Assembly (NCBI GenBank): GCA_947585215.1
Contig: CANPWY010000002.1
Coordinates: 1-56,373, forward strand
Direction of reading: 5' to 3'
Source of the DNA: an uncultured Clostridia bacterium
GTDB lineage: Bacteria > Bacillota > Clostridia > Oscillospirales > JAAYOS01
DNA length: 56,373 nucleotides
The position numbers and the translations under genes were made by a program. The notes under the pieces were generated by a model that had not been told where the DNA came from, searched no databases, and saw nothing but the letters and a program-made list of their open reading frames with translations. Below are positions 3,097 to 46,122 of the stretch, one piece after another. Every line of letters starts with the position of its first letter. The first letter of the stretch is position 1.

Positions 3097-3315
3097 TTAC
3101 TCCGGCTTGTCGGCCGCGCCGCAGGCCGCGGGAGCCTCGGCGGGTTTATCGGCTGCGCCGCAGGCTGTTCCGCAGGCCGCGGGCTTCTTCTCCGGCTTGT
3201 CAGCCGCACCGCAGGCGGCGGGATTCTCCGCAGGCTTGTCGGAAGCGCCGCACGAGGCTCCGCAGGCGGAAGCCGTCTTCTTTTCGGTCCATCCGGCGAG
3301 ATTGGAAAGTGCCAT
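3097..3315 (-). CDS. RiPP precursor candidate, ACGX / CX3D-KP repeat peptide (72 aa)
   Basis: ATG at 3315 preceded by GAGGAGG. Sequence: MALSNLAGWTEKKTASACGASCGASDKPAENPAACGAADKPEKKPAACGTACGAADKPAEAPAACGAADKPE. It has six Cys, four C-x3-D-K-P units, and sits 96 nt upstream of the rSAM/SPASM gene. Confidence 0.7.
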   Translation of the reverse strand: MALSNLAGWTEKKTASACGASCGASDKPAENPAACGAADKPEKKPAACGTACGAADKPAEAPAACGAADKPE

Positions 3316-19921: not shown

Positions 19922-20476
19922 CTATATCCTCTCCGCCGTCTCGCGGACGATCTTCTCCGCGTCGTTTCCCCAAATATACAGCCCGTCAGCCTTGATGAAA
20001 CGAACCTCGGGGATGGAGAACAGCTCGCACAGCTCACCCACATACAGCTCGAGCGAGCTGCCGTCCGGAACATATCCGCCGGAGGTCGTGATATATGTGA
20101 GCTTTCTGCACGCGCAGGTCTTGACGGTGCGGCCGCCCTCGCCGTAGCGGAACATGATGCCGTTCACGCATATCCGTTCGAGATAAATTTTCAGCAGAGC
20201 GGGAACGGAGCAGTCCCAATACGGCGCGCCGATGAGAATCTCGTCGGCCTCGGCAAATTCCCGGGCGTATGAGTAATCCTCCCCAGAGAGATTTCCGGCG
20301 GCGATGTCCTCGTCCCTCTTTTGCAGACCTTCCCTGTCGAGCGGCAGCAGCGGCTCCGCCGCGACCTCCCGCTCCTTCACGTCCGCGTCCTGCCAGTATT
20401 TTCGGATGTATGCGTCGCAGAGCAACTTCGTTCTGGAATTTTCCCTCACACATGCGTTTACGAACAGCGCTTTCAT
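19922..20476 (-). CDS. flavodoxin-like fold NAD(P)H-dependent oxidoreductase
   Basis: 184 aa. MKALFVNACVRENSRTKLL...ILIGAPYWDCSVPALLKIYLERI is typical of the azoreductase / NAD(P)H dehydrogenase (quinone)-like family. Confidence 0.7.
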   Translation of the reverse strand: MKALFVNACVRENSRTKLLCDAYIRKYWQDADVKEREVAAEPLLPLDREGLQKRDEDIAAGNLSGEDYSYAREFAEADEILIGAPYWDCSVPALLKIYLERICVNGIMFRYGEGGRTVKTCACRKLTYITTSGGYVPDGSSLELYVGELCELFSIPEVRFIKADGLYIWGNDAEKIVRETAERI

Positions 20477-20599
20477 AGCACTTGTTCTCCTCTCGTATTT
20501 TTCGGTGACGCCGCGAGCGGCGGGAACCGTCGGCTCCTCTCAGAGGGTATAACGGCGCGGGAGGTTTGTCAATATCGGCGGCGCGAATCGCCGAAAATG

Positions 20600-20690
20600 C
20601 GACTCGAATTGCATTCGACATGCAATTCGAGTCGTGATTTCGTTGATTCGGGACAAAGCGGTTGACAACCGCCCCAAATTTTCGGATACT
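20600..20690 (+). promoter_or_regulatory. promoter/operator region of the GG-peptide array (repeat copy 1)
   Basis: Perfect 15-bp inverted repeat CGACTCGAATTGCAT-5 nt-ATGCAATTCGAGTCG (20600-20634). Direct repeats ATTCGAG (20625) and ATTCGGG (20646) are 21 bp apart. Then TTGACA (20662-20667), 17 nt, GATACT (20685-20690). The block 20616-20697 recurs at 34925-35006. Confidence 0.6.
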
Positions 20691-20800: not shown

Positions 20801-21031
20801 ATGAGCGAAACCAAAAAATTCCAGCGGGGGGGGGCAACGCCTGATTTAAAAGACACCGCCCTGTCCGAAGAAACTCTGGAGAACGTCACCGGCGGTGAGG
20901 AGGGCGCATTTAAGGACGCCTGCACTTATTGCGCCAATCAGGCCGGAAAATGTCCGTTCATCGACAACATATTCACCGTTCTGGATACGATGGAAGGCAG
21001 GCGCGCATGCGCTTACTTTACCCGAGGCTGA
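20801..21031 (+). CDS. GG-leader peptide P1 (4-Cys core)
   Basis: RBS AAGGAGG. Leader MSETKKFQRGGATPDLKDTALSEETLENVTGG. Core has C-x2-C...C...C. Contains a G9 homopolymer at 20826-20834. Confidence 0.75.
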   Translation: MSETKKFQRGGATPDLKDTALSEETLENVTGGEEGAFKDACTYCANQAGKCPFIDNIFTVLDTMEGRRACAYFTRG

Positions 21032-21061
21032 TTTACGACTATAATTAAGGAGGAACATACC

Positions 21062-21328
21062 ATGCTGAACGAAAAGAAGCCCGACGAGAAGACCCTGGAC
21101 GAAAAGACTCTCGAGGGAGTCACCGGCGGGTACAATCCCGACGTTATCGAGCCCAACCCCAATATCCCCACCGGGCCCGATCCCGCGGCGCAGTTCGCTT
21201 TCCTCGAGACGTTTAGGACCGTCAACTGCAACTCCTGCTCAAGACAGGACTGCCTCGCTCGCACCGATACGAAGGAAGCACTCAATCACTTCGGCGAAGG
21301 CATCTGCCCCCTTCGCGAAAGCAAGTAA
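21062..21328 (+). CDS. GG-leader peptide P2 (4-Cys NCxxC family)
   Basis: RBS AAGGAGGAACATACC-ATG. Leader MLNEKKPDEKTLDEKTLEGVTGG. Core has NCNSC...DC...GICP. Confidence 0.8.
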   Translation: MLNEKKPDEKTLDEKTLEGVTGGYNPDVIEPNPNIPTGPDPAAQFAFLETFRTVNCNSCSRQDCLARTDTKEALNHFGEGICPLRESK

Positions 21329-21341
21329 GGAGGAACATACC

Positions 21342-21563
21342 ATGTTTAACGAAAAGAAGCCAGAAGAGAAGACCGTGGACGAAAAGACCCTTGAGGGAGT
21401 CACCGGCGGATACGATTCCGATGACGAGTACGATTTCGCCGATAGGTTTATAGCGAGCAACTGCAACCGCTGCCGCAACATGGACTGCCCCGAGCGCGGC
21501 TACATAATGGCAATAATCAATCAGCACTACGGCGAAAGCATCTGCCCATCTCGCGAAGACTAG
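21342..21563 (+). CDS. GG-leader peptide P3 (4-Cys NCxxC family)
   Basis: Same RBS block as P2. Leader MFNEKKPEEKTVDEKTLEGVTGG. Core has NCNRC...DCP...SICP and is acidic. Confidence 0.8.
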   Translation: MFNEKKPEEKTVDEKTLEGVTGGYDSDDEYDFADRFIASNCNRCRNMDCPERGYIMAIINQHYGESICPSRED

Positions 21564-21579
21564 TAAGGAGGAAAGAGCG

Positions 21580-21795
21580 ATGGATGAGAAAAAGACCCTC
21601 TCCGATGAGACACTGAAAGACGTGTCCGGGGGAACATATGCGATCAATTATCGGGAACTTGAATACTTTGTAGGAAATAATTGCGCGTCTTGCAGCTTCG
21701 ATCAGCTCATGCACGGCTGCCCCTATGGAGGCAAAGTTTATGCATTTCAGGAGTTGGGCAAGGACGGGATCTGCCCGAAAAAGGAGGCAATGTGA
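21580..21795 (+). CDS. GG-leader peptide P4 (4-Cys NCxxC family)
   Basis: Leader MDEKKTLSDETLKDVSGG. Core has NCASC...GCPYGG...GICPKKE. Confidence 0.8.
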   Translation: MDEKKTLSDETLKDVSGGTYAINYRELEYFVGNNCASCSFDQLMHGCPYGGKVYAFQELGKDGICPKKEAM

Positions 21796-22013
21796 CCGTG
21801 GACGAGGAAAAGACCCTGTCCGACGAGGCGCTCGAAGAAGTGTCCGGGGGAATGACTCCGGCAGTACGCAGGGAGTTTGAGAAGTTTGCAAGAAATAATT
21901 GCATGCATTGCAGCCGCAAGGTAGAGCGAGACTGCCCCTATGGAGATGGCATGGAGGCGCTTCAGGCGTTAGGCGAGGACGGGATCTGCCCGGAAAAGGA
22001 GGCGAGGACATGA
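21792..22013 (+). CDS. GG-leader peptide P5 (4-Cys NCxxC family)
   Basis: GTG start overlapping the P4 stop (ATGTGA). Leader VTVDEEKTLSDEALEEVSGG. Core has NCMHC...DCPYGDG...GICPEKE. Confidence 0.75.
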   Translation: MTVDEEKTLSDEALEEVSGGMTPAVRREFEKFARNNCMHCSRKVERDCPYGDGMEALQALGEDGICPEKEART

Positions 22014-22225
22014 CAGACGAAAAGAAGCTGACTGACGAGACTCTCGAAGAAGTGTCCGGGGGAAAATTTCGGGACTTTTCTTTAGGGGGGGTTAGAAATT
22101 TCCAGAACCAGAATTGTGCGCATTGCCTTCACCAGCTGGACTGTCCCTATGGAGGCGCCTCTCAGGTAATTCAGACGGTGGGCGGCTACGCGACCTGCCC
22201 GAACAAGGAGGAGATACAGCCGTGA
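22010..22225 (+). CDS. GG-leader peptide P6 (4-Cys NCxxC family)
   Basis: ATGA overlap with P5. Leader MTDEKKLTDETLEEVSGG. Core has NCAHC...DCPYGG...ATCPNKE. Confidence 0.8.
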   Translation: MTDEKKLTDETLEEVSGGKFRDFSLGGVRNFQNQNCAHCLHQLDCPYGGASQVIQTVGGYATCPNKEEIQP

Positions 22226-22437
22226 CAGACAAAAAGAAACTGCCCGATGAGACGCTGAAAGATGTGTCCGGGGGAGCATTTGTGGAAATTTCTCCCGGAC
22301 TTGACCGCTTTACAGGAAATAATTGCATATCTTGCAGCAACAACCTGCCCGGGCGCGGCTGCCCCTACGGAAGCAGCGTTTATGCATTTAAGGAGTTGGG
22401 CAGGGACGGGATCTGCCCGAAAAAGGAGGCAATGTGA
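22222..22437 (+). CDS. GG-leader peptide P7 (4-Cys NCxxC family)
   Basis: GTGA overlap with P6. Leader VTDKKKLPDETLKDVSGG. Core has NCISC...GCPYGS...GICPKKE. Confidence 0.75.
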   Translation: MTDKKKLPDETLKDVSGGAFVEISPGLDRFTGNNCISCSNNLPGRGCPYGSSVYAFKELGRDGICPKKEAM

Positions 22438-22658
22438 CCGTGGACGAAGAAAAGAAGCTCGACGAAAAAGCTCTGGGCTCGGTCTCAGGAGGGGAGTACA
22501 CGCCGCCGGTATTTGACCGAAATATACGGGTATTCATATGCCCCGCCTGCGGGGAGACCATCAAAGGGGACGATTTCAGCGGCTTGAAGGTGCAGTGCCC
22601 CGGGTGCGGACATTGGCTCCGCCGCGGCTCGTCCGGGCTTATGCTTATGGAGGGATAA
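22434..22658 (+). CDS. GG-leader peptide P8 (zinc-ribbon-like CPxCG x2 core)
   Basis: GTG overlapping the P7 stop. Leader VTVDEEKKLDEKALGSVSGG. Core has ICPACGETIKGDDFSGLKVQCPGCGHWL. Confidence 0.75.
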   Translation: MTVDEEKKLDEKALGSVSGGEYTPPVFDRNIRVFICPACGETIKGDDFSGLKVQCPGCGHWLRRGSSGLMLMEG

Positions 22659-22662
22659 CGAT

Positions 22663-22905
22663 ATGTTTGATACCGATAAATTCCGTCAGGGGGAGGTTCC
22701 TCCCGAGCAGGAGGATTCCCTTGAGAACGTCGCCGGGGGAACGAACTTCTCAAGGCCAAACTATGAATCCCCGGACGTGTCAATGTACAGATGCCCTGTT
22801 TGCGGGGCTACCGTCAAGGACAACCACCTCAACCACTCGCAGCTGAAGTGCAACGGCTGCGGACGCCGGTTTCATCTCAACGGATCAACACTTGTGGAGG
22901 AATAA
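22663..22905 (+). CDS. GG-leader peptide P9 (zinc-ribbon-like core)
   Basis: Leader MFDTDKFRQGEVPPEQEDSLENVAGG. Core has RCPVCG...LKCNGCGRRFHLNGSTLVEE. Confidence 0.8.
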   Translation: MFDTDKFRQGEVPPEQEDSLENVAGGTNFSRPNYESPDVSMYRCPVCGATVKDNHLNHSQLKCNGCGRRFHLNGSTLVEE

Positions 22906-22910
22906 CGAAT

Positions 22911-23153
22911 ATGACTGATACCAATAAATTCCGGCGGGGCGAGGTACCTCCCGAGCAGGAGGACGCTCTCGAGAGCGTCGCCGGAGGCAAGTTCGAAAGG
23001 ACGAACTATGACTTAGAACAGAATAAATTAACGTTCACATGTCCCGCCTGTGGGCGCACGGTCAAAAGCAGCTTCGCCGACGGCCGGCGGCTGCAGTGCC
23101 CCGAGTGCGGACACCAATTTCATCTCAACGGATCACAACTTGTGGAGGAATAG
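22911..23153 (+). CDS. GG-leader peptide P10 (zinc-ribbon-like core)
   Basis: Leader MTDTNKFRRGEVPPEQEDALESVAGG. Core has TCPACG...LQCPECGHQFHLNGSQLVEE. Confidence 0.8.
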   Translation: MTDTNKFRRGEVPPEQEDALESVAGGKFERTNYDLEQNKLTFTCPACGRTVKSSFADGRRLQCPECGHQFHLNGSQLVEE

Positions 23154-23158
23154 CAAAT

Positions 23159-23409
23159 ATGATAGATACCAATAAATTCCAGCGGGGGGGTGCGTACCTC
23201 CTGAGCAGGAGGACGCTCTCGAGAGCGTCTCCGGAGGAGTAACATTCAAAGGGCCGCAAGTTGACGTGACGGAAATAACGCGCACATGCCCCGTCTGCGG
23301 CGCGACTTTCGCAGACAGCGTCGTCAACGGCCAAATGGTCGAGCGGATGCAGTGCCCCAAGTGCAAACGTGTGTTGCGTCTCGTCGGATCAACACTCGTG
23401 GAGGAATAG
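23159..23409 (+). pseudogene. GG-leader peptide P11 (zinc-ribbon-like core), frameshifted at a G7 tract
   Basis: It starts MIDTNKFQRGG, then the frame is lost at 23184-23190. The shifted downstream frame reads VPPEQEDALESVSGGVTFKGPQVDVTEITRTCPVCG...MQCPKCKRVLRLVGSTLVEE and stops at 23407-23409. One extra G would restore the frame. Confidence 0.7.
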
Positions 23410-23411
23410 TC

Positions 23412-23597
23412 ATGAACGAGGATAAAAAGCTCCGCCATGGCGCCTCCCCCAAGCCGCAGGACGCCGCGCTCGATGACAACGCCGTTGAGGCCGTCACCGG
23501 GGGAGTGAAGATGACAAGCAAGGCCCGTGCAGAAAAGGCGTTGGACAAAATCGAGCAGATGCTCGATAATCAGAAAGGCAAGGAGGATCAACCGTGA
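23412..23597 (+). CDS. GG-leader peptide P12 (Cys-free charged core)
   Basis: Leader MNEDKKLRHGASPKPQDAALDDNAVEAVTGG. Core VKMTSKARAEKALDKIEQMLDNQKGKEDQP. Confidence 0.75.
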   Translation: MNEDKKLRHGASPKPQDAALDDNAVEAVTGGVKMTSKARAEKALDKIEQMLDNQKGKEDQP

Positions 23598-23779
23598 ACG
23601 AGGATAAAAAACTCCGCCATGGCGCCTCCCCCAAGCCGCAGGACGCCGCGCTCGACGACGCCTCCGTTGAGGCCGTCACCGGGGGAACGAGGAGGTCAAG
23701 CAATGACTTGGCACAAGATGCATGGGACAAATTAAATCGGGTGCTCGATAATCAGAAAGACAAGGAGGATCAACCGTGA
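23594..23779 (+). CDS. GG-leader peptide P13 (Cys-free charged core)
   Basis: GTGA overlap with P12 and a near-identical leader. Core TRRSSNDLAQDAWDKLNRVLDNQKDKEDQP. Confidence 0.75.
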   Translation: MNEDKKLRHGASPKPQDAALDDASVEAVTGGTRRSSNDLAQDAWDKLNRVLDNQKDKEDQP

Positions 23780-24039
23780 ACGACGAAAAGAAGCTCAACG
23801 AGAAGGAGCTTGAAAACGTATCCGGCGGCGCGGCCGGAGCGGAGGGCTTCGAGGCCGCGTGGGCGGCCTACGCCGCCGAGCACTGCGGCAGATGCTACCA
23901 CCAAAATAAGGCACATCATGTAGAGGCATATACGGGCGAAATGACCGATTTGATGTGCGAAGGCGGAAAGATCTCGGCCGCCGAGGACTGGGCAGCGGGC
24001 ATGCCCATTCGCTGCCCGGCCTTCCTCGAACCGTGCTGA
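23776..24039 (+). CDS. GG-leader peptide P14 (5-Cys core)
   Basis: GTGA overlap with P13. Leader VNDEKKLNEKELENVSGG. Core has HCGRC...MC...RCPAFLEPC. Confidence 0.75.
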   Translation: MNDEKKLNEKELENVSGGAAGAEGFEAAWAAYAAEHCGRCYHQNKAHHVEAYTGEMTDLMCEGGKISAAEDWAAGMPIRCPAFLEPC

Positions 24040-24054
24040 GAAGGAGGAAAAGTT

Positions 24055-24282
24055 ATGAGCGAGAAAAAGAAGATAGACGAGAGGGAGCTGGAAAACGTGA
24101 ACGGCGGCGCAGACGCCGCCTCGGACAGCTTCGACGCCGTCTGGGAGGCGTTCGCCGTCACCCATTGCCACCAATGCGCCGTGCCGTACAAAGACACCTG
24201 CGCCGCGGAAATAAGGCGTGTGCGCGCGCAGTGGGAGGCGGGCAAGCCCCTCAAGTGCATGGCCTTTATCGACAAGTGCTGA
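24055..24282 (+). CDS. GG-leader peptide P15 (5-Cys core)
   Basis: RBS AAGGAGGAAAAG. Leader MSEKKKIDERELENVNGG. Core has HCHQC...TC...KCMAFIDKC. Confidence 0.8.
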   Translation: MSEKKKIDERELENVNGGADAASDSFDAVWEAFAVTHCHQCAVPYKDTCAAEIRRVRAQWEAGKPLKCMAFIDKC

Positions 24283-24373: not shown

Positions 24374-26275
24374 ATGAAAAGAAATACCAGGCGGCGGTAT
24401 CTGCTCGGCGCGGCGGTCATTCTTGCCGTGGCGGCGCTGATACTCGTCGTGTTCTCCCTGCTCAGTATGACCGACAAGAACGACATGGCGCTCGGCGACA
24501 AGGAAACGGAGCGCTTCGGCTGGAGCTATGAGCTCCTCACCGACGAGGGTGTGCGTCCCTACGACCCGGTGTTCCTGAACTGGTACTACATCCAGCTGCC
24601 GGAGGACACACGCGCCGTTCGGATAACCCGCGTCATGACCGAGGACATTCCGACGGCGGAGCTCACCTGGATGAGCTTTCGGGACGGCGTCGAGGTATCT
24701 CTTGACGGTATCCTGCTCTACACCGACTTCCCGTCGCTCGCGCGGGACGAGAACGGCTTCGTTCACCCCGACGAGACGGAGTGGGAGCGCATCTGGCGGC
24801 AGGGCGGCGAGGAGAACGTGCGCTCCACGCGCATGACCCTCCCTGAGGACTACGTCGGCATGACCCTCACCGTCACGACCTACTTCCGCGAGGGATACAT
24901 CGGCACGCCGGAATATCCGTACATCGGCGAGGCGGACGCGATGCTCGCGGCCTCCACCATAGTCCTCTCGGTGCGCTACAACGCCGTTATGACCCTCTAT
25001 GCGCTGCTCGCGCTGCTGATGGCGGGCGTGTTCCTCGTGGAGGTGTACAACGGCACCGGGGACGGCAGGACGCTCCTGCTCTGCCTCTACTTCCTGCTCC
25101 TGTTCCTGAAGGAGGCCTACGGCTCTATCGCCGGATATTACAGCGTGCTCACCGCGCGGCTGGATCTGCGGTTCCTGAGCGCGGTGTACATGGCGCCGCT
25201 CTATCTCTACCTCGTGCTCCGTATGCGGAGCCGGTGGAAGTGGCCGCTGTGCGCCGCCGTCACGGCGTGGGCGGTGTTTGAGAGCGTGTGGGAGCTGAGA
25301 CAGCCGGAGGGAATTGCGGTGCTCGTCGGGCCGGAGACGCTTGCGGTGCTCCTCGTCGTGACGGCGGCGCTCGCCGCCGACGGTCTCCGCCGCAAGGGAC
25401 GCACGGAGCAGGAGAAGAAGCGCCTCCTCGTCTACGGAATAATCGCCGCCGTACTCACGGCGGGATACATGCTGAACCGCATCCGCTCGTGGGACGGCGA
25501 CTTCGTCGGCTACTTCCGCGACGAGCTGTGGAACGGACTGAGCGTCGGCAACTGCTGGCCGGTGGTGAGTCTGCTCACCGGTGTCATATCGTGGATGACC
25601 GTTATCGTCGTCGTGTCCGAGGCCGTCCGCAGGACGCTTGCGACCCACCGCACGATGGACGTGCTCCGCGAGCGGGAACGTCAGACCGTGGCGGGCTACG
25701 AGAGATTGCTCGCGTCGGAGGACGACACCCGCGCCCTGCACCACGAGATGCGCCACCACATGCTCGCGCTCGAGGCTATCCTTGCCGACGGAGATACGGA
25801 GCGCGCCCGGCGGTACGTCGGCGCCGTCGCCGAGGACCTGGCGCAGGTGCCCACAGGGCGGTACTGCCGGAACATTCTCGTGGACATGATAGCCGGGAGC
25901 TTTCTCGACCGTGCGGCGGCGCAGGGCATCCGTGTGGAGCAGCACTTGGACCTGCCCGAGACGCTGAACATCGCCGACGAGGACTTGAGCGTCTTCCTCA
26001 GCAACATGCTCCAAAACGCTCTGGAGGCATGCGAGCGTATGAACCCGGAGCAGGATAGGTATATATGGGTCGATATGCACCTGCGGGGGAACTTCCTCTG
26101 CATACAGTGCGTCAACAGCCGTCCCGAGGGCGAGGAGCCGCGGGAGCGGGAGGGTCACGGCTACGGCCTCACGGCCATGCGCGCCGTGGCTGAAAAATAC
26201 AACAGCGCCCTGCTCATAGAGCGGGCGCCGAAGAGATTTTCGGTTACAAGCGACTTCTGCCTCGAGAAGTTTTGA
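24374..26275 (+). CDS. membrane sensor histidine kinase (GHKL, LytTR-partner type) with a large extracytoplasmic N-terminal domain
   Basis: One TM, an extracytoplasmic segment of about 170 aa, then about 6-7 TM helices. H-box LHHEMRHHMLAL, N-box FLSNMLQNALEA, G-box GHGYGL. Confidence 0.85.
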   Translation: MKRNTRRRYLLGAAVILAVAALILVVFSLLSMTDKNDMALGDKETERFGWSYELLTDEGVRPYDPVFLNWYYIQLPEDTRAVRITRVMTEDIPTAELTWMSFRDGVEVSLDGILLYTDFPSLARDENGFVHPDETEWERIWRQGGEENVRSTRMTLPEDYVGMTLTVTTYFREGYIGTPEYPYIGEADAMLAASTIVLSVRYNAVMTLYALLALLMAGVFLVEVYNGTGDGRTLLLCLYFLLLFLKEAYGSIAGYYSVLTARLDLRFLSAVYMAPLYLYLVLRMRSRWKWPLCAAVTAWAVFESVWELRQPEGIAVLVGPETLAVLLVVTAALAADGLRRKGRTEQEKKRLLVYGIIAAVLTAGYMLNRIRSWDGDFVGYFRDELWNGLSVGNCWPVVSLLTGVISWMTVIVVVSEAVRRTLATHRTMDVLRERERQTVAGYERLLASEDDTRALHHEMRHHMLALEAILADGDTERARRYVGAVAEDLAQVPTGRYCRNILVDMIAGSFLDRAAAQGIRVEQHLDLPETLNIADEDLSVFLSNMLQNALEACERMNPEQDRYIWVDMHLRGNFLCIQCVNSRPEGEEPREREGHGYGLTAMRAVAEKYNSALLIERAPKRFSVTSDFCLEKF

Positions 26276-26278: not shown

Positions 26279-26995
26279 TCAGACCGGCGGACGCCGCCGG
26301 TCGAAGGCGGCGAGAGCCATCTGTATGCCGGAGTAGTCGGAGCGGCCGAGCGGAATGACGTCCCCGGAGGTCAGGCGCAGACGGTCGCGGCTCAGCACGG
26401 CGATGTGCTCGAGGTTGACGAGATAGCTGCGGTGTACGCGCACAAACCTACCCGCGGGAAGCTCGCGCTCAAGCTCCTGAAGCGTGCCCCGCCACGAGCT
26501 CTCGCTGCCGTCCAGGCGGTGGAGCTCCACGACATGGTTGTAAACCTCGAAGTAGAGCGCGTCCGCGACGGGCAGGCGCACGTCGCCCAAGGGCGTCGTG
26601 AGAGACAGCATCTGCGGCGCGTGCCGCTCGAGGAACTGACAGAGCACGCTCTCAAGCTGCTCCGGACGCAGCGGCTTTAGCAGATAGTGCAGGGGACGGA
26701 CGTCATAGCCGTCCACGGCGTATCTCTCGCTCGAGGACATGAGTACCAAGTCGAGATCGAGGTTCCGCTCGCGGAGGAGCTTGCCGAAGCGGATGCCCTT
26801 CTCCTCGCCGAAGAGAATATCGAGGAACAGAAGGTCGCACGGATCGCCCCGGTCCAGCGCGGAAAGCGTCAGGGACGGGTCGGGATAGCAGGTGATATTG
26901 CAGTCCGCGTCCCGCTCTCCGAAGAAGCGGGACAGGGTGGACGAAAGCGCCGAGGCAAAGGCGCTGTCGTCATCACATATAATGATTTCGTACAT
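26279..26995 (-). CDS. LytTR family response regulator
   Basis: Receiver domain MYEIIICDDD...DLLFLDI. C-terminal LytTR domain with FVRVHRSYLVNLEHI. Convergent with the kinase gene, 3 nt apart. Confidence 0.9.
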   Translation of the reverse strand: MYEIIICDDDSAFASALSSTLSRFFGERDADCNITCYPDPSLTLSALDRGDPCDLLFLDILFGEEKGIRFGKLLRERNLDLDLVLMSSSERYAVDGYDVRPLHYLLKPLRPEQLESVLCQFLERHAPQMLSLTTPLGDVRLPVADALYFEVYNHVVELHRLDGSESSWRGTLQELERELPAGRFVRVHRSYLVNLEHIAVLSRDRLRLTSGDVIPLGRSDYSGIQMALAAFDRRRPPV

Positions 26996-27110
26996 GCAGG
27001 TCACCCCCACTGTCTTACGGGAACAAACATTACTTTATCACATTTTTTGCAATAAATCAAGAGGATCCGCCGCGCAGAAAGCATGGCGGACGATACAAGG
27101 AGGAACAACA

Positions 27111-27407
27111 ATGACCATCACCAAGAACCTGAACGGGACACATCTCGACCTCGCGCTCGAGGGACGGCTGGACACCACCACCGCGCCCCTGCTTGAGGCG
27201 GAACTGAAGCAGAGCATAAACGGCGTCACCGAGCTGACGCTGGATTTCGGCGAGCTGGAGTATATCTCCTCCGCGGGACTGAGGGTGCTCCTCAGCGCCC
27301 AGAAGGTCATGAACCGGCAGGACTCCATGGTCATCAAAAATGTTAACGAGACGATAATGGAGATCTTCGAGGTCACCGGCTTCGCGGACATCCTGACTAT
27401 AGAGTGA
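27111..27407 (+). CDS. STAS domain protein (anti-sigma-factor antagonist, SpoIIAA/RsbV-like)
   Basis: 98 aa. RLDTTTAPLLEAEL...LDFGELEYISSAGLRVLL contains the conserved phosphorylatable Ser. RBS AAGGAGG. Confidence 0.85.
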   Translation: MTITKNLNGTHLDLALEGRLDTTTAPLLEAELKQSINGVTELTLDFGELEYISSAGLRVLLSAQKVMNRQDSMVIKNVNETIMEIFEVTGFADILTIE

Positions 27408-27408
27408 C

Positions 27409-29973
27409 ATGACGGGTGAGAAGCAAAACGATATGAAGCGCACGCCAATCCGCCGTCAGGTACAGCGGATGGTACTTCTGCTGTGCGTGGCGGCGCTGGT
27501 AGTCACGGGCGTGCTGTGGGCGGGGAGCCTCTTCGCTCTGCGGGACACGGTCCAGCGGGACAGCCAGGACTTGGGCGAGAGCGCGGCCTCCGCCGGCGGC
27601 GAGGCTCTGCTTTCCCAGATGGAGCAGAACCTCTATCAGGGCGTGCGGAGCGAGGCCGCTGTTGTGGACGAGAAGCTGGAGCGCTACGCCGCCGACGTGC
27701 GGGACTTCGCCTTCTACGCCGGGCGGCTCTATGAGGAGCCGGAGGCATACGTGCCGAAGGAGGTCCTGCCCCCGGACGCGGCGAGTCAGTATACCTTTAC
27801 TATGCAGCTCGTGTGGCGGGACAAGAGTACAGACAAGACCGCCGTGCAGGAGGAGATAGGCCTCCTTGCGAATCTTGTCCACATATGGCAGCCGGTGATG
27901 ACCGGCGACACGGAGAACATCGCGTCCATCTATCTCTGCACCGAGAGCGGGTTCATGATAAACTACGACGAGCGCTCCGACCTGACGCCGGATTACTTTG
28001 ACTATGAGCAGTCCGCATGGTATCAGGCCGCGAGGGACACCGGGGACGTTATCTTCACGGTGCCCTATATGGACACCTTCGGCCGCGGGCTCATGCTCAC
28101 CTGCGCCGCGCCGATCCACGACGCGGACGGCCGCTTCGCCGGCGTGGTGTGCATGGACATGATGGTGGAGGATCTTGTGGAGAAGGTGCTCGACATCGAC
28201 TTCGGCGAGGGCTCCTACGGCTTCCTGGTGGACGGAACGGGGAACATCATCGTCTCCCCGCAGATGGAGTACGACGGGACGTTTGAAAACGTCCGCGACC
28301 CGGACTGCCTTGCAAAGGAGGCGGCGGAGAGCATCATGAGCGGCGAGGCGGGCGTCACGCCCACCTCCGAAGGTCTCTACTATGCCTACGCGCCCATCGA
28401 CGCGTCGAACTGGACGCTTGCCGTCCACATGCCGGCGGATATGATAACCGCGCCGGCGGAGAACATCCGCACGGACATAACCGAGCGGACGGAGTCTACC
28501 GCCGGAACCATCGACAGCAATATCGCGCGGACGGGGCTCATTTCGCTTGCGGTATTCGTGGTGATAATCGGAGCGGTAGTCGCCCTGAGCGGAGGATTTT
28601 CCCGGAAGCTCACGGGGCCGCTTCTGGAGTTGCGCTCCGACGTGGAGCACATAAGCGGCGGCGACCTTGCTCATCAGGCCGCCGTGCGGCGCAACGACGA
28701 GATAGGCGACTTGGCGGCGGCTTTCAACGGCATGGCGGGGTCGCTTGACAGGTACATAAAGGATTTGACCGCCGTGACGGCGGAGAAGGAGCGCATCGGC
28801 GCGGAGCTGGACATCGCCACACACATTCAGGCGTCCATGCTGCCCTGTATCTTCCCCGCCTTTCCGAACCGGCGGGAATTCGACGTCTACGCATCAATGA
28901 CGCCCGCCAAGGAGGTAGGCGGCGACTTCTACGACTTCTTCATGGTGGACGACACGCACCTCGCCGTCGTGGTGGCGGACGTGTCCGGCAAGGGCGTTCC
29001 GGCGGCGCTGTTCATGGTCATCGGCAAGACGCTCATCAAGGACCACACCACCCCGAACAGAGACCTGGGCGAGGTGTTCATGGAGGTGAACCGCCTCCTG
29101 TGCGAAGGAAACGCCGAGGAGATGTTCATCACCGCCTTCGAGGGAGTGCTGGACCTTGAGACAGGCCGGTTCGACTTCGGCAACGCCGGCCATGAGACGC
29201 CGTTCATTTGCAGAAAGGGCGAGGGCTACGCCCCCTATAAGATACGCGCGGGCTTCGTGCTTGCGGGCATGGAGGGAACGCGCTACCGCATGGGCTCCTT
29301 GCAGCTTGAACCCGGCGACAAGCTGTTCCAGTACACGGACGGCGTCACCGAGGCCACAAACAGCCGGAGCGAGCTGTACGGCATGGAGCGGCTTGAGGCG
29401 GTGCTGAACCGCAACGCCGCCGCAGCGCCTGACGAGCTTCTCCTGAAGGTGAAGGCGGATATCGACGCCTTCGTGGGCGGAGCGCCGCAATTCGACGACA
29501 TCACGATGCTGTGCTTGGAGTTCAGTGAAAGAATGCGCGCATCCGACCAAAGCGAGCTCACCGTGGAGGCGGAGACGGAGAACATCCCCGTCGTGACGGC
29601 CTTTGTTGACGGCAAGCTGGAAGCGCTCGACTGCCCCGCGAAGGCCAAGACGCAGATAGACGTCGCCATCGACGAGCTGTTCGGCAACATCGCCCGGTAC
29701 GCTTACGACCCATCCGGCCCGGTGACCGTTCGGGTGGAAACGGAGAGGGAGCCAAAGACCGTGCGCATCACCTTCATCGACCGAGGAAAGCCCTACGACC
29801 CGCTTGCAAAGCCCGACCCGGACGTGACATTGCCCGCGGAGGAGCGGCCCATCGGGGGACTCGGCGTCTACATGGTGAAAAAGAGCATGGACGACGTGCG
29901 CTACGAGTACAGGGACGGCCAAAATATCCTGACGGTGGAAAAGCGTTTGCAGGACACGTCGGGAAAAGAATGA
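27409..29973 (+). CDS. dCache-HAMP-PP2C (SpoIIE) phosphatase fused to an RsbW-like HATPase Ser/Thr kinase domain
   Basis: TM1, extracytoplasmic Cache-like region of about 330 aa, TM2, and a HAMP domain (NDEIGDLAAAFNGMAGSL). PP2C motifs EVGGDFYDF and VADVSGKGVPAALFM. C-terminal region VAIDELFGNIARYAY...GGLGVYMVKKSMD. Starts 1 nt after the STAS stop. Confidence 0.8.
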   Translation: MTGEKQNDMKRTPIRRQVQRMVLLLCVAALVVTGVLWAGSLFALRDTVQRDSQDLGESAASAGGEALLSQMEQNLYQGVRSEAAVVDEKLERYAADVRDFAFYAGRLYEEPEAYVPKEVLPPDAASQYTFTMQLVWRDKSTDKTAVQEEIGLLANLVHIWQPVMTGDTENIASIYLCTESGFMINYDERSDLTPDYFDYEQSAWYQAARDTGDVIFTVPYMDTFGRGLMLTCAAPIHDADGRFAGVVCMDMMVEDLVEKVLDIDFGEGSYGFLVDGTGNIIVSPQMEYDGTFENVRDPDCLAKEAAESIMSGEAGVTPTSEGLYYAYAPIDASNWTLAVHMPADMITAPAENIRTDITERTESTAGTIDSNIARTGLISLAVFVVIIGAVVALSGGFSRKLTGPLLELRSDVEHISGGDLAHQAAVRRNDEIGDLAAAFNGMAGSLDRYIKDLTAVTAEKERIGAELDIATHIQASMLPCIFPAFPNRREFDVYASMTPAKEVGGDFYDFFMVDDTHLAVVVADVSGKGVPAALFMVIGKTLIKDHTTPNRDLGEVFMEVNRLLCEGNAEEMFITAFEGVLDLETGRFDFGNAGHETPFICRKGEGYAPYKIRAGFVLAGMEGTRYRMGSLQLEPGDKLFQYTDGVTEATNSRSELYGMERLEAVLNRNAAAAPDELLLKVKADIDAFVGGAPQFDDITMLCLEFSERMRASDQSELTVEAETENIPVVTAFVDGKLEALDCPAKAKTQIDVAIDELFGNIARYAYDPSGPVTVRVETEREPKTVRITFIDRGKPYDPLAKPDPDVTLPAEERPIGGLGVYMVKKSMDDVRYEYRDGQNILTVEKRLQDTSGKE

Positions 29974-29993
29974 TCACAGCGGAGGAAACGACT

Positions 29994-30470
29994 ATGGACA
30001 ACGGACTGTTTCGTCGGAAGACGCTGGACAAGGTGTCCAGCCCGGAGCAGATGAACGACTATATCCGGGTGACAAGTCCCGGCGTGTGGTTGGTACTGGC
30101 GGCGGTTATAGCGCTCCTTGCGGGGCTCATCATCTGGTCGGCGCTCGGCCGCTTGGAGACTACGGTGACGGCCGTGGCGGTGGCCGGGCCGGACGGCGGC
30201 CCCGTGTGTTACATAGCCGAGGACGACATGGACGCCGTCCGCGCGGGTCAGACCGTGCACATCGCGGGGAAGGACTATACCCTTTCCGGGGTGGCGGCGA
30301 AGCCGGTTCCGGCGGACGGAAGTCTCGACGCCTACGCCCTGCACGTGGGCGGCATGGAGGCGGACGGGTGGGTGTACCCCGCCGAGCTTGACGCGGTTCT
30401 TTCCGAAGGCATCTACGAGGCGCGGATAGTGGTGGACAGCGTGGCGCCAATCTCGTTTCTGCTGAACTGA
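29994..30470 (+). CDS. short HlyD-like secretion adaptor (NHLP bacteriocin system type)
   Basis: Start at MDNGLFRRKTLDKVSSPEQMNDYIRVTSPGVWLVL with RBS GGAGGAAA, followed by a single TM helix. An alternative ATG at 29970 overlaps the upstream stop. Confidence 0.7.
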   Translation: MDNGLFRRKTLDKVSSPEQMNDYIRVTSPGVWLVLAAVIALLAGLIIWSALGRLETTVTAVAVAGPDGGPVCYIAEDDMDAVRAGQTVHIAGKDYTLSGVAAKPVPADGSLDAYALHVGGMEADGWVYPAELDAVLSEGIYEARIVVDSVAPISFLLN

Positions 30471-30477: not shown

Positions 30478-32652
30478 ATGAGAAAACAGGAGATAAAAAA
30501 GCCCGTCACAAAGGGCGTGGCGAAGGTGCCGGTCGTCATGCAGATGGAGACGCTGGAGTGCGGCGCGGCCTCCCTTGCCATGGTGCTGGCATTCTATAAC
30601 AAGTGGGTGCCGCTCGAGCAGGTGCGCGCGGACTGCGGCGTGAGCCGGGACGGCTCCAACGCAAAGAACGTGCTGAAAGCCGCGAGAAGCTACGGCCTCA
30701 CGGCAAACGCGTACCGTCTGGAGCCGGAGGATCTGCGGGAGAACGGAAGCTTCCCCTGCATCATCCACTGGAACTTCAATCACTTCGTGGTGCTCGACGG
30801 CTTCAAGGGCGGCAAGGCCATACTGAACGACCCTGCTCGGGGCATCGTCCCGGTGAGCATGGAGAACTTCGACGAATCCTTCACCGGTATCTGTCTGACG
30901 TTCGAGCCGGGGGAGGATTTCCGACCCGGCGGCAGTCCCAAGAGCATGGTGGGCTACGCGAAAAAGCGCCTCACCGGAGCGGGCGCAGCGCTCGTGTTCG
31001 TGATGCTGACGACGCTGATAAGCTCCCTCTTCGGCGTGATAAACCCCGCCTTCTCCCGCATCTTCATGGATCGGCTCCTGACGGGCGAGAACCCGGAGTG
31101 GCTGTGGCCGTTCATTCTGGTGCTGGCGGGTGTGAGCATACTTCAGCTTGTAGTGGCATGGGTGCAGGCGATATGGTCGCTTCGCATCACGGGAAAGCTT
31201 GCCGCGGTGGGCTCGGCCACTTTCCTTTGGAAGGTACTGCACATGCCGATGGAGTTCTTCTCCCAACGCATGGCGGGCGACATACGTCAGCGGCAGTCCA
31301 CCAACGCCTCCATCGCTCAGGAGCTGGTGAACACTCAGGGTCCGCTGGTGCTGAACGCCATCATGATGGTGTTCTATCTGGTGGTCATGCTGCGGTATTC
31401 GTGGATACTCACCATAGTGGGTCTCTCGTCCGTACTCATCACTCTGGTGGTGAGCCGGTATATCTCAAAGAAGCGGGTGAACATCACCCGCGTGCAGATG
31501 CGCGACTCCGGCAAGCTGACGTCTTCCACCATGGCGGCCATCGAGATGATAGAGACCATCAAGGCCGCCGGAGCGGAGAACGGCTATTTTGAGCGCTGGG
31601 CGGGGTATCAGGCAAGCGTCAACACCCAGCAGATGCGATATGCAAAGACGGACGCGTACCTCGGACTCATTCCGTCCGTCGTGAGCGTCATCAGGGACGC
31701 TGTCTTCCTGTTCCTCGGCGTGCTGTTTGTCATGCAGGGTGAGTTCACCATCGGTATGGTCATGGCGTTTCAGGGCTTTCTCATGAGCTTCACCGCCCCG
31801 GCGACGACGCTCATCGACGCCGGGCAGACCATTCAGGAAATGCGCACCGAGATGGAACGCGTGGAGGACGTGATGGAGTACCCCGAGGACAGCAACATGA
31901 CCGAGTCGGAGGAGCAGGAAAACTGCGACAAGCTCACGGGAGCCTTGGAGATGAAGCACGTCACCTTCGGCTAATCCAAGCTAGCCGAGCCGCTCATTGA
32001 GGACTTCAATCTTAGCCTGAAGCCGGGAAGCCGTGTGGCCTTCGTCGGCGGCTCCGGCTGCGGAAAATCGACGCTCAGCAAGCTCATCTCGGGCCTTTAC
32101 CGACCGTGGAGCGGAGAGATACTCTTCGACGGCAAGCCGATACGCGAGATCGACCGGAGCGTGTTTACCGGGTCGCTCGCCGTCGTTGATCAGGACGTCA
32201 TCCTCTTCGAGGACACCATCGCCGAGAACATAAAGATGTGGGACAAGTCCATAGAGGACTTTGAGATGATCCTCGCGGCTCGGGACGCAGGCATACACAG
32301 CGACATCATAAAGCGCGAGGGCGGCTACGACCACAAGCTCGTCGAGGGCGGCCGGGACTTCTCCGGCGGCCAGCGCCAGCGCATGGAGATAGCGCGCGTC
32401 CTCGCGCAGGACCCCACCATCATCATACTTGACGAAGCCACGTCCGCTCTGGACGCCAAGACGGAATACGAGGTAGTGAAGTCCATCAAGGACAGGGGCG
32501 TCACCTGCATCGTGGTGGCTCACCGGCTCTCTACCATCCGGGACTGCGACGAGATAATCGTCCTGGACCACGGCAAGGTGGTGGAGCGCGGCACCCATGA
32601 CGAGCTTTACGCCATGGGTGGGTACTACACCCGTCTGGTGTCCAACGACTGA
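30478..32652 (+). pseudogene. bacteriocin-type ABC exporter with N-terminal C39 peptidase domain, interrupted by one in-frame TAA (31972-31974)
   Basis: C39 motifs VVMQMETLECGAASLAMVL and IIHWNFNHFVVL, followed by 6 TM helices. [40 protein letters not shown] continues in the same frame through Walker A, LSGGQRQR and [10 protein letters not shown]. Confidence 0.8.
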
Positions 32653-32666
32653 GGAGGTGTGACGCA

Positions 32667-34924: not shown

Positions 34925-35006
34925 CGACATGCAATTCGAGTCGTGATTTCGTCGATTCGGGACAAAGCGGTTGACAACCGCCCCAAAGTTTCGGATACTT
35001 AAACCG
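34925..35006 (+). promoter_or_regulatory. promoter/operator repeat copy 2 (upstream of the methyltransferase-STAS gene)
   Basis: 82 bp with about 4 mismatches to 20616-20697. ATTCGAG (34934) and ATTCGGG (34955) are 21 bp apart. TTGACA (34971-34976), 17 nt, GATACT (34994-34999). Confidence 0.6.
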
Positions 35007-35061: not shown

Positions 35062-36300
35062 ATGGACGAACTGAGAGCAAGGACAAATCCCGCCTTCAAC
35101 GGAGCCAAGTCGACGCTGGTGTACCTCGTGGAGGCCGGGGACGGGAACGCGGCCATGATGGCGGGGGAGCTGAACATCGACCCCAACGCCGTGTTCGGCG
35201 GCGAGAAGAGGGACGCTCTGAGTATGGGCATGATGGCCACCGTGGACGCCGGCTACGAGATCATGAACAAGATCATGTCCTCCGTGCCGGAGAAGACCAT
35301 CGTCGATCTGGGCTGCGGCTACACTCCCCGGGCGCTGATCCCGGAGCTTGAAAACAAGCACTACATAGGCTGTGACCTGCCCATCGTCATCGACGAGATG
35401 GCTCCGCTCGCAAAGAAGCTTCTTGCGGGCAAAAACCGCCCCGCCCCGGCGGAGTACAAGGCGGCGGACTTCACAAACTACGACTCTCTGCGCGCCGCTC
35501 TGAACGGCGTGGAGGGGCCGGTGTGCCTCGAAAGTCAGAGCACGCTGGACTACCTCACTCAGTCGGAGGTGCGTCAGCTCTGCGCCAACGTGCGCCGGGT
35601 GCTTGTGGAGTTCGGCGGCCGCTGGCTCACCCCGGACGTTGAGGCGGGCGACCGCACGGTGAACACGCTGATGGCCGTCGTGGGCGCGGACGCCCTGCGG
35701 GATGTTATGAGCGCCTTCACCACGCTGTCCTCCGAGACGGACGTAGTGGTGGGTGACAATGATATGATCATCCGCTACGGCTATACGGATGACATTCCCA
35801 AGTGCGCGGCTCTGCTGAAAGAGGTCGGTCTGAAGGCAAAGAAGATCACCATGAGCGATTACATGCCCGAGCTGAAGGTGTTTGGAAAGCTCAACGATGA
35901 ACAGCGGGCGGCCATGAAGAAGGCATACGAAAGCCTGAACGCGTGGGAGCTGACCCCTGACCCCGACTGGACCGAGCCCGAGGCGAAGACGGGCGGCGAA
36001 TTCGGCATTGACACCGCCGTGAACGGCTCTGACCTCACCGTCACCCTGCGGGGCCGGGTGGACTCGCTCACTGCGCCGGAGTTCCTCGCCGCCTTTGAAA
36101 AGGTCGCCGGGGAGAACGCCCTCGCCGCCGCGACGGTGGATATGTCGAACCTTGAGTACATCTCCTCCGCCGGACTCCGTGTCCTGCTCATCATGACGAA
36201 GCGCCTCGGCGCGGGCCATGTGATCGTCACCGGCGCAAACGAGCTAATCCGCTCCATCTTCGAGCAGACCGGCTATGACGACATTCTGAGGATACGATAA
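35062..36300 (+). CDS. class I SAM-dependent methyltransferase-like domain fused to a C-terminal STAS domain
   Basis: N-terminal region with IVDLGCGYTPRAL (motif I, Leu-carboxyl/TcmP-like). The C-terminal 100 aa reads LRGRVDSLTAPEFLAAF...VDMSNLEYISSAGLRVLLIM, paralogous to the stand-alone STAS protein. Confidence 0.7.
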   Translation: MDELRARTNPAFNGAKSTLVYLVEAGDGNAAMMAGELNIDPNAVFGGEKRDALSMGMMATVDAGYEIMNKIMSSVPEKTIVDLGCGYTPRALIPELENKHYIGCDLPIVIDEMAPLAKKLLAGKNRPAPAEYKAADFTNYDSLRAALNGVEGPVCLESQSTLDYLTQSEVRQLCANVRRVLVEFGGRWLTPDVEAGDRTVNTLMAVVGADALRDVMSAFTTLSSETDVVVGDNDMIIRYGYTDDIPKCAALLKEVGLKAKKITMSDYMPELKVFGKLNDEQRAAMKKAYESLNAWELTPDPDWTEPEAKTGGEFGIDTAVNGSDLTVTLRGRVDSLTAPEFLAAFEKVAGENALAAATVDMSNLEYISSAGLRVLLIMTKRLGAGHVIVTGANELIRSIFEQTGYDDILRIR

Positions 36301-44618: not shown

Positions 44619-44695
44619 CAGGTATCCTCCTTGCGTAAGTGGGTACGGCAGGGACGGCAGGAACGTTTCCGCCGGCTCTGCCGCGCCCACGGCGC

Positions 44696-45457: not shown

Positions 45458-45576
45458 CTCCTTTCGGCTTTTGTCTGGGTTTCCGAGACACGAGCCCGAC
45501 CCGCCCGGTCGATAGGAGCCGAGCGGGCCGGAAATTATAGTGGTACGGAATGGTACTGTTGGGTATTGGTTAGAAA

Positions 45577-46020: not shown

Positions 46021-46122
46021 GGTGATCAATCCTTTCATAAAGAGTTTTCGCTTTGTATCTTCAAGCGGAGCGCCTATCCGCCCCGCAGGATACCGTTTCC
46101 GGGTGCGCCCGGGCGGGCGCGG

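Follow-up and report, generated by a model that had tools for sequence, protein, structure and literature searches.

The locus described here lies on contig CANPWY010000002.1 of an uncultured Clostridia bacterium (Oscillospirales, JAAYOS01; NCBI GenBank assembly GCA_947585215.1), of which positions 1 to 56,373, hereafter the window, were analyzed. Its main feature is an array of small genes, P1 to P15, that encode peptides with double-glycine (GG) leaders and fill positions 20801-24282 of the forward strand, from the first base of the P1 ATG to the last base of the P15 stop codon. A preliminary description of this DNA had listed 15 consecutive genes of this kind. Its coordinates were exact and 14 of the genes, at 61-88 codons each, are intact, but the remaining one (P11) is frameshifted, and a further gene, P16 (36329-36577), had been overlooked. 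A scan of both strands of the window for a ribosome-binding site (RBS) coupled to the leader motif returned the array genes and P16 only.

All features below are on the forward strand unless stated otherwise. The first seven genes encode peptides whose cores have four invariant cysteines (CxxC...C...C). P1 (20801-21031) is the divergent member of this group and combines a long leader of 32 amino acids, in whose coding sequence nine guanines stand in a row, with a 44-residue core (CxxC...CP...C). It is followed by P2 (21062-21328; 65-residue core), P3 (21342-21563; 50-residue, acidic core), and P4 (21580-21795; 53-residue core, NCxxC...CPYG...CPKKE), each with a GG leader, and by P5 (21792-22013), whose GTG start at 21792 (or 21798) overlaps the P4 stop codon, P6 (22010-22225), and P7 (22222-22437). 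P8 (22434-22658) joins a short GG leader to a C4 zinc-ribbon-type core (CPACG...CPGCG), P9 (22663-22905) and P10 (22911-23153) join long GG leaders to cores of the same type, and P11 (23159-23409) is the frameshifted zinc-ribbon peptide gene. P12 (23412-23597) encodes a long GG leader and a charged, Cys-free core, and P13 (23594-23779) is its paralog, both cores being of 30 residues. P14 (23776-24039) and P15 (24055-24282) have short GG leaders and five-Cys cores of 69 and 57 residues, respectively.

Start codons are ATG or GTG, and GGAGG or AAGGAGG stands 6-9 nucleotides (nt) 5' of every one. Six junctions are 4-nt ATGA/GTGA stop/start overlaps, and in several genes the terminal codons (KKEAM*, KEDQP*) double as the RBS of the following gene, so that the earlier statement that each gene has its own RBS or a coupled overlap holds throughout. 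The largest intergenic gap in the array is 30 nt, too small for an immunity or enzyme gene, and that neither is interleaved had been noted before; no open reading frame (ORF) is left unassigned across 20.8-36.6 kb. P11 starts at an ATG at 23159 and is read for 27 codons up to a stop at 23240-23242, the end of its leader and its core being in the -1 frame (open from 23176 to 23409). The lesion falls in a run of seven guanines (23184-23190), for which orthologs in the related loci described below have either eight (in frame; L032 and L033, with P0008 among the intact alleles) or six (out of frame; L001). A second such tract, in P1 (20826-20834), has nine guanines with six adenines in the window against seven and five in L001. 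These differences between assemblies in leader-coding poly-G tracts could reflect slipped-strand on/off switching or errors in the assembly of homopolymers.

The leaders are rich in Lys and Glu, span 18-32 residues, and end in V-x-G-G in all 16 peptides (P11 and P16 counted). Counting back from the cleavage site, GG, Val at -4, and Leu or Val at -7 are found in 16 of 16 and a hydrophobic residue at -12 in 13 of 16. The motif first given, L-x-x-V-x-G-G, therefore stands in its V-x-G-G part and has to be relaxed at -7, where P12 and P13 have Val and all others Leu. Pfam and NCBIfam scans took in 13 of the 16 peptides, with all core classes represented. In these scans P14 scored 17.6 bits with the bacteriocin leader family TIGR01847 (bacteriocin_sig; cut-off 15.7), P4 and P15 remained under the cut-off at 12.8-13.0, the other peptides did not match it, and no peptide scanned matched a long leader domain of the NHLP or Nif11 type. 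Leaders and cores are shuffled: a long P12-type leader (MTDKRKILGGGGSTSELED...) is carried by a zinc-ribbon core in L027 (3045-3299), and the zinc-ribbon class of the window has both the short (P8) and the long (P9-P11) type.

An exporter of the kind that such leaders address is encoded in the same locus (30478-34865). ABC1 (30478-32652) is an NHLM_micro_ABC1-type ATP-binding cassette (ABC) protein with a C39 peptidase, a transmembrane domain (TMD), and a nucleotide-binding domain (NBD); it is broken by an in-frame TAA at 31972-31974 and matches TIGR03796 in two pieces of 544.3 and 339.6 bits, against a cut-off of 853.3. ABC2 (32667-34865) is the NHLM_micro_ABC2-type permease/ATPase without a peptidase domain (TIGR03797, 735.8 bits; cut-off 709.4). 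Immediately 5' of ABC1, a HlyD-like accessory protein of 166 residues (29970-30470) corresponds to the N terminus only of the NHLP-system HlyD (TIGR03794, E 1.4e-10, 40.7 bits; cut-off 156.2). The C39 domain of ABC1 (Pfam Peptidase_C39, E 4e-33) matches the crystallized protease domain of LahT (LahT147, PDB 6MPZ) with E 3e-69 and 106 of 145 residues identical (73%), and ABC1 also matches PCAT1 of Clostridium (Acetivibrio) thermocellum (4RY2 and related entries; E 2e-42). The oxyanion residue Q22 and the triad C28/H102/D118 are all kept, the nonsense codon lying downstream in the NBD. LahT is a substrate-tolerant protease that removes GG leaders from very diverse substrates, and in its co-crystal the leader residues at -4, -7, and -12 occupy pockets (PMC6363468). 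On the strength of the C39 homology, the intact catalytic residues, and the leader residues at the pocket positions, we infer that the peptides are cleaved after GG and their cores exported by the exporter of the locus. This agrees with the preliminary description, which had read the leaders as substrates of a C39 ABC exporter.

The four core classes recognized earlier (4-Cys, CPxCG, Cys-free, and 5-Cys) hold, P1 being the only divergent 4-Cys member. P2-P7 and their relatives share the motif F-x3-N-C-x2-C-x4-8-C-P-Y-G-x4-A-x3-L-G-x2-4-C-P-x-K-E. In an alignment of P8-P11, two CPxCG-type knuckles are separated by 14-20 residues; P10 exceeds the Pfam gathering scores of DUF7836 (30.9 against 26.7) and DUF7560 (28.6 against 27), and the class gives many sub-threshold zinc-ribbon matches, which together assign these cores to the C4 zinc-ribbon type by sequence. 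A common origin of the 4-Cys and 5-Cys classes was rejected (hhalign probability 0.8%). None of the cores matched a curated family of bacteriocins or of ribosomally made peptides with post-translational modifications (RiPPs) in Pfam or NCBIfam, including the families of the blp and pln loci; apart from the generic zinc-ribbon matches of P8-P11, there were only sub-threshold matches to leader regions (Bacteriocin_IIc, ComC, bact_IIb_cerein, and cyan_ocin_like). Profile searches thus bear out the view that the cores are unrecognized, and they have few relatives database-wide. Our literature search on GG-leader zinc-ribbon peptides, and on GG-leader peptides in Oscillospiraceae, found nothing relevant. 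An AlphaFold2 model of P4 from a 19-sequence alignment has three short helices (pLDDT 66).

The cores are hydrophilic and neutral to acidic, as described before, with grand average of hydropathy (GRAVY) values of -1.88 to 0.07 and isoelectric points of 4.4-8.3, unlike the cationic, hydrophobic class II bacteriocins. When the 47 distinct cores from all loci were pooled, 42 had at least four cysteines, the median GRAVY was -0.5, three had a charge above +2, and the longest hydrophobic run was at most six residues. The prevalence of cysteine and the lack of any hydrophobic run above six residues indicate that the cargo is a coherent class and not a random assortment. From the array to 36.6 kb there is no adjacent small membrane immunity gene of the kind that accompanies class II bacteriocins, and the cores are not cationic, amphiphilic, or hydrophobic. 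A PAP2 membrane phosphatase gene 3' of P16 was considered as an immunity gene and rejected, as it has no counterpart in any related locus.

Upstream of P1 we found a single sigma-70-like promoter with an activator box, in line with the one promoter proposed earlier. This region (20625-20690) consists of a repeat pair, ATTCGAGTC-N12-ATTCGGGAC, at 20625-20654, a -35 element TTGACA at 20662-20667, a 17-nt spacer, and a -10 element GATACT at 20685-20690. A second forward-strand copy (34934-34999) precedes the gene MT_STAS and P16, with the repeats at 34934-34963, TTGACA at 34971-34976, and GATACT at 34994-34999. The third copy, ATTCGAGTC-N12-ATTCGCGCC, is on the reverse strand (20580-20609) and directs its own TTGACA at a Flavodoxin_2/FMN-reductase-like gene that diverges from the array (19922-20476, reverse strand; Pfam Flavodoxin_2, E 1.7e-20). 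Each box thus consists of two directly repeated 9-nt units, set 21 nt apart with a 12-nt spacer, and is found three times in the window against 0.07 expected; TTGACA begins 7 nt past the second repeat in all three copies, and GATACT follows 17 nt on in both forward-strand copies. The mirrored copy implies, for this species only, bidirectional co-regulation of the array and the flavodoxin-like NAD(P)H-flavin reductase gene, a candidate member of the regulon. That gene adjoins the array in close relatives alone (L001, L002, and L034) and is not kept in more distant loci. The two divergent promoters form an imperfect palindrome (20559-20675) with 56-nt arms, of which the array promoter is the right half and the mirror box with its TTGACA the left.

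The geometry of the boxes is that of the LytTR consensus site, 9-bp repeats with a 12-bp spacer beside the -35 element (PMC2766830), and a sensor and regulator pair follows the array. A membrane histidine kinase (24374-26275) has several transmembrane segments, an extracytoplasmic domain of ~170 residues that matched no family, and a GHKL-type HATPase_c_5 domain (E 4.9e-11); the response regulator (26279-27010, reverse strand) has a LytTR domain (E 3.8e-16) and a receiver domain (Response_reg, E 9.8e-10). The box is conserved in related loci, with 44-97% protein identity to the window; several of these repeat a locus already represented by another assembly. It stands 5' of peptide arrays in L001, L002, L003, L004, L023, and L024, 5' of MT_STAS-peptide operons in L013-L015, L017, and L018, and 5' of the kinase gene in L019 and L022. 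Because a conserved box with LytTR geometry lies beside a kinase/LytTR pair, the array is very likely a target of that pair. No terminator was found between P15 and the kinase gene, which makes read-through from the array promoter, and with it positive feedback, plausible. Promoter-like matches inside the array, five including the array promoter itself, are only modestly above the 2.0 +/- 1.4 expected by chance, and Rfam found no structured RNA or riboswitch in the window, the leader region included.

Further genes of the locus are of partner-switching type. Between the regulator and the exporter genes lie a stand-alone STAS protein of the anti-sigma-factor-antagonist type (27111-27407; TIGR00377, 67.5 bits) with the phospho-serine motif YISSAGL and a dCache-HAMP-PP2C(SpoIIE)-HATPase_c_2 fusion (27409-29973), a membrane sensor with both the phosphatase and the kinase domain of a partner-switching system. 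Downstream of ABC2, MT_STAS (35062-36300; 412 residues) combines an N-terminal 310-residue part resembling LCM-type S-adenosylmethionine (SAM)-dependent methyltransferases with a C-terminal STAS domain (E 2.8e-12). The methyltransferase assignment is based on Pfam LCM, which matches 11 of 13 members of the MT_STAS family with a best E of 7.2e-7; a single-sequence structure model of MT_STAS (pLDDT 41) was discarded. Directly 3' of it, P16 (36329-36577) encodes a GG leader and a 59-residue 4-Cys core (DNCIGYC...CPY...CP). An orthologous subfamily of P16 is present in L015 and L017, and P0046 was picked up by the 4-Cys profile with E 1.6e-11. MT_STAS adjoins GG peptides in L013-L015, L017, L018, L026, and L027 and is, on this repeated co-transcription with GG peptides in relatives, a candidate tailoring or regulatory enzyme. 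In L019 (5628-5925) and L022 (from 5935) the box is followed by an 86-residue zinc-ribbon ORF that has no GG leader; behind it come the genes for the kinase and the LytTR regulator and two copies of MT_STAS, and upstream no peptide array was found.

An indexed search with P4 gave two clusters. When the 4-Cys core profile was run exhaustively with HMMER against 1.84 billion representative proteins, it returned 18 proteins, comprising five close orthologs, one spurious repeat protein, and 12 distant relatives of 63-80 residues, every one of which has a GG leader and the four invariant cysteines. The zinc-ribbon family has 15 relatives, and relatives of P12 occur in L015 and L027. A synteny comparison, which had been suggested earlier, showed that the order of array, kinase, LytTR regulator, Cache-PP2C gene, and MT_STAS is kept in L023 and L024 at ~70-85% protein identity, with eight and six GG peptides in the array, respectively. 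In L013-L015 and L018 the peptides are interspersed with two MT_STAS genes beside ABC1/ABC2. All MT_STAS relatives in named genome records come from metagenome-assembled genomes (MAGs) of uncultured Oscillospiraceae of the rabbit gut ("Lapin"); the other peptide-bearing loci are on metagenome contigs from ENA and Logan, and for two of them there is a matching NCBI MAG record. The system is so far limited to rabbit-gut Oscillospiraceae. Scans of JGI metagenomes with the box pattern and the MT_STAS profile gave no match to either, and a search for another assembly of the window's exact strain found its ABC2 protein nowhere else on record. In the related MAG GCA_947584295.1 (L013-L015 and L018; for example L015, 1043-8081), genes for an AIM24-family protein, a secreted Peptidase_M15 protein (D-Ala-D-Ala dipeptidase-like), and a 1131-residue fusion of SBP_bac_3, permease, and ABC ATPase are scattered among the peptide and MT_STAS genes. 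Elsewhere, in L010, L011, and L012 (for example L012, 4036-4427), a pair of 4-Cys GG peptides stands immediately 3' of spo0A with no box, exporter, or kinase nearby; L012 and L001 are from the same sample.

We favor, with moderate confidence, the reading that the array operon encodes the cargo of a peptide-secretion system that induces itself and exports through a peptidase-containing ABC transporter (PCAT), with a layout like that of the blp and pln loci and a different cargo. In this model, the kinase would phosphorylate the LytTR regulator, which would bind the repeat pair beside the -35 element and switch on the array, the MT_STAS-P16 operon, and the divergent flavodoxin-like gene; transcription of the array would probably continue into the kinase gene and so close a positive feedback loop. 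The precursors would be translated from their individual strong RBSs, and their 18-32-residue leaders would dock through V-4, L-7, and L-12 in the LahT-like C39 domain of ABC1. After the cut behind Gly-Gly, the cores of 30-69 residues would be exported by the machinery of ABC1, ABC2, and the short HlyD-like protein. Outside the cell, these hydrophilic, mostly 4-Cys cores may fold around a metal ion (the CPxCG class) or through disulfides and might work as a mixture of effectors through which related gut bacteria compete or communicate. One peptide would serve as the inducing signal, for which P12 and P13, the sole Cys-free short cores, are formal candidates.

In loci of the blp type, numerous GG peptides occur together with a C39 ABC exporter, a kinase, and a LytTR regulator (PMC12943804). 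Those of Streptococcus pneumoniae, S. oralis subsp. dentisani (blp), and Lactiplantibacillus plantarum (pln) resemble our locus in their many GG-leader genes, in the C39 exporter with an accessory protein, in the membrane kinase and LytTR regulator with direct-repeat boxes before several operons (PMC12943804, PMC2766830), and in strain-variable peptide content with often-broken transporter genes (PMC4739728). Because this arrangement of kinase, LytTR regulator, PCAT, and peptide cocktail is shared, the system is not without precedent; its cargo families are novel. The locus differs from blp and pln in its hydrophilic, neutral to acidic, mostly 4- to 5-Cys cores, which are not cationic or amphiphilic, in the absence of interleaved immunity genes, in having up to 15 peptides in a single operon, in its exporter of the two-ABC NHLM type, in the added dCache-PP2C-kinase/STAS partner-switching module, and in the MT_STAS proteins that share the regulon.

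Several observations weigh against the proposed secretion system. A Foldseek search of the PDB with the P4 4-Cys model gave no match at E <=10, the confidence of that model being moderate. With neither an immunity gene nor cationic or amphiphilic cores, an antimicrobial role is unsupported. No recognizable box precedes the exporter operon. In a comparison of strains with 97% identical kinases, the cores of P12/P13 diverge by ~30%, which argues against strict pherotype pairing. Selection on the peptides, computed against L001 (93-94% identical) as the ratio of nonsynonymous to synonymous polymorphism (pN/pS), is uneven: the value for all peptide genes combined is 0.56, against 0.09 for the kinase and 0.13 for Cache-PP2C, and it reaches at least 0.8 for P7 and P12-P15, which fits diversifying and relaxed selection alike. 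Lastly, the machinery carries lesions. The ABC1 TAA of the window replaces the Tyr codon of VTFGYSKL ~25 residues before Walker A, where L034 has TAC, and L001 and L034, a sister lineage recovered from two samples, share 1-nt deletions in the kinase and HlyD-like genes (window-equivalent positions 24924 and 30272). On the basis of these lesions in the window and in L001/L034, the machinery may be decaying.

The strongest competitor to the functional secretion system builds on this last point and holds that the locus in this strain is a decaying remnant whose peptides are still encoded but whose export has been lost through the truncation of ABC1. The TAA separates the C39 domain and TMD (498 residues) from the NBD, and this nonsense codon together with the P11 frameshift means that export in this strain may be impaired or dependent on another transporter. 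Moreover, the frameshifts of the sister lineage are independent of the lesions in the window and reproduced in two samples. Besides the deletions already mentioned, they include a common 16-nt net deletion (window-equivalent 30962-30986) that splits ABC1 just past the C39 domain into a 169-residue stand-alone C39 protease and a 549-residue ABC protein; the peptide genes of L001/L034 are intact except for the frameshifted P11 ortholog. The raised pN/pS of the peptides would also fit decay. Set against this, the window retains in intact form 14 of the 15 small genes, every RBS, the promoter boxes, the genes for kinase and regulator, and ABC2, and strong purifying selection acts on several peptides: pN/pS is 0.03-0.21 for P2-P4 and P9 (0.21 for P2 and 0.03 for P3), which for these genes answers the earlier concern that the small ORFs might not be conserved as coding sequence. 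It is also possible that the single-base changes in the window are errors of a low-coverage metagenome assembly. In pneumococci, blpAB is frameshifted in >75% of strains, and the locus is still expressed and its peptides exported through a paralogous transporter (PMC4739728); independent lesions in the machinery with the peptide genes kept would resemble that situation. We consider it somewhat unlikely that the locus is a remnant.

A different view of the same genes is that signaling is the main role of the peptides, which would be pheromone-like mini-proteins sensed by the kinase, by the dCache-PP2C-kinase sensor, or by both, with MT_STAS as the partner-switching output. It would account for the missing immunity genes and for cores that are hydrophilic and not membrane-active, and it draws on the fact that the operons of the exporter and the peptides also encode two extracytoplasmic sensors and two STAS proteins, on the co-transcription of the Cache-PP2C gene with the exporter genes (gaps <=8 nt), and on the association of kinase, LytTR regulator, and MT_STAS in L019, L022, L023, and L024. 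We nevertheless find it doubtful, as a single strain with 16 paralogous signals, drawn from four or more families, would go far beyond known quorum systems. The turnover of copies between strains is fast and resembles that of bacteriocin cocktails: in L001 the P7 core is swapped for a P5-like core, there is one extra zinc-ribbon gene, and P12/13 is a single copy, and L002 has no P1 and a broken P7. In addition, dCache_1 domains usually bind small molecules.

We also weighed whether the peptides are RiPP precursors whose cysteines or carboxylates are modified before export, by MT_STAS through O-methylation or by an unlinked radical SAM (rSAM) or other enzyme, in a multi-substrate cluster of the prochlorosin or lah kind. 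NHLM-type exporters, to which the one here belongs, accompany RiPP clusters, its protease shares 73% identity with the counterpart in the lah lanthipeptide cluster, and the Cys-rich cores recall precursors of sactipeptides and ranthipeptides. MT_STAS lies directly 5' of GG peptides in the window, L013-L015, L017, and L027, and shares a promoter box with them in the window, L013-L015, and L017. Nevertheless, no RiPP enzyme (LanM, cyclodehydratase, or rSAM) adjoins the array between 20 and 53 kb, and neither the locus nor ~12 related loci contain a LanM, cyclodehydratase, radical SAM, or glycosyltransferase. The leaders are short and of class II type, not NHLP or Nif11, and paired CPxCG motifs are typical metal-binding knuckles. 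MT_STAS also occurs right after the kinase and regulator without nearby peptides (L019 and L022), and the partner-switching phospho-serine motif of its STAS domain points to a regulatory role. We judge a RiPP cluster unlikely. Tailoring of the array peptides by the sole rSAM/SPASM enzyme of the window was rejected, since its gene (1966-3000, reverse strand; TIGR04340, 579 bits against a cut-off of 400) belongs to an ACGX system, 17 kb away with unrelated genes between, and has its own substrate immediately 5', an ACGX-repeat peptide (3097-3315, reverse strand; TIGR04341, 79.5 bits against 28).

Very unlikely, finally, is the view that the cores are secreted to bind metals or for redox purposes (scavenging zinc or iron, or carrying electrons outside the cell), a purely inferential reading that draws on the cysteine content of 42 of 47 cores, the two CPxCG knuckles of P8-P11 with P10 above zinc-ribbon family thresholds, the anoxic gut, which disfavors disulfides, and the NAD(P)H-flavin reductase-like gene on the same bidirectional box promoter, but for which the locus lacks both a receptor that could recognize a metal-loaded peptide and a system for its uptake, the flavodoxin-like neighbor is lost in more distant loci, and quorum control and copy-number turnover are atypical of metallophores.

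Returning to the proposed autoinducible secretion system, its exporter and cargo can be set beside other users of GG leaders. The lah cluster of Lachnospiraceae bacterium C6A11 (LahT/LahA1-9) and the prochlorosin-type NHLP/Nif11 clusters share with it one tolerant protease/exporter for many precursors, conserved leaders with diverse cores, membership of the NHLM_micro ABC1/ABC2 families, and, for LahT147, the 73% identical C39 domain. They differ in that the leaders here are 18-32-residue class II leaders, not Nif11/NHLP domains of ~70 residues, that the locus here lacks a lanthionine synthetase and any other RiPP enzyme, and that the cores look like small folded Cys4 domains. PCAT1 of C. thermocellum is a clostridial PCAT, like ABC1, and exports the GG-leader peptide CtA, a hydrophilic cargo without known function, from a single substrate gene through a single homodimeric ABC protein. 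To our knowledge, neither a quorum module nor a Cys-rich cargo has been described for it. Glycocins (sublancin and glycocin F), sactipeptides, and ranthipeptides likewise pair GG-type leaders with C39 exporters, and their cores, of 35-45 residues, are hydrophilic, contain cysteine, and form helical hairpins; here, by contrast, there is no glycosyltransferase, thiol-disulfide oxidoreductase, or radical SAM maturase in the locus, and the cysteines are spaced as CxxC...CP...CP or twice CPxCG, not as paired Cx6C.

We put forward tentatively, as a bolder proposal that may well prove wrong, that the cargo belongs to an undescribed class of PCAT substrates: GG-exported, hydrophilic Cys4 mini-domains that would fold around metal outside the cell, including genuine zinc ribbons and a new helical NCxxC...CPYG...CP fold. 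These would be the effectors or signals of a circuit specific to Oscillospiraceae, in which a LytTR quorum system is connected with a dCache-PP2C/STAS switch and with carboxyl-methyltransferase-STAS outputs, and the locus would be neither a classical bacteriocin locus nor a RiPP cluster. If it is true that secreted zinc-ribbon or other Cys4 mini-proteins are extracellular effectors, the known range of PCAT-exported molecules would widen. Oscillospiraceae are anaerobes, abundant in the gut and difficult to cultivate, whose competition and communication have been little studied. The locus provides a complete candidate circuit for them, defined from its sequence, that extends from the signal box through kinase, regulator, and exporter to the 16 peptides of the cargo. 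The main predictions can be tested in vitro without culturing the organism, as the peptides are short enough for synthesis or expression in E. coli and LahT150, the closest relative of the protease, is an existing laboratory reagent.

Beyond the locus, the window also contains type IV pilus genes, which adjoin a 1577-residue protein without a Pfam match and a 1029-residue SLH-domain protein. This region (40758-45491, 45577-50260, and 50279-53368, all on the reverse strand) encodes T2SSF, two ATPases of the T2SSE family, and a pilin that carries an N_methyl motif.

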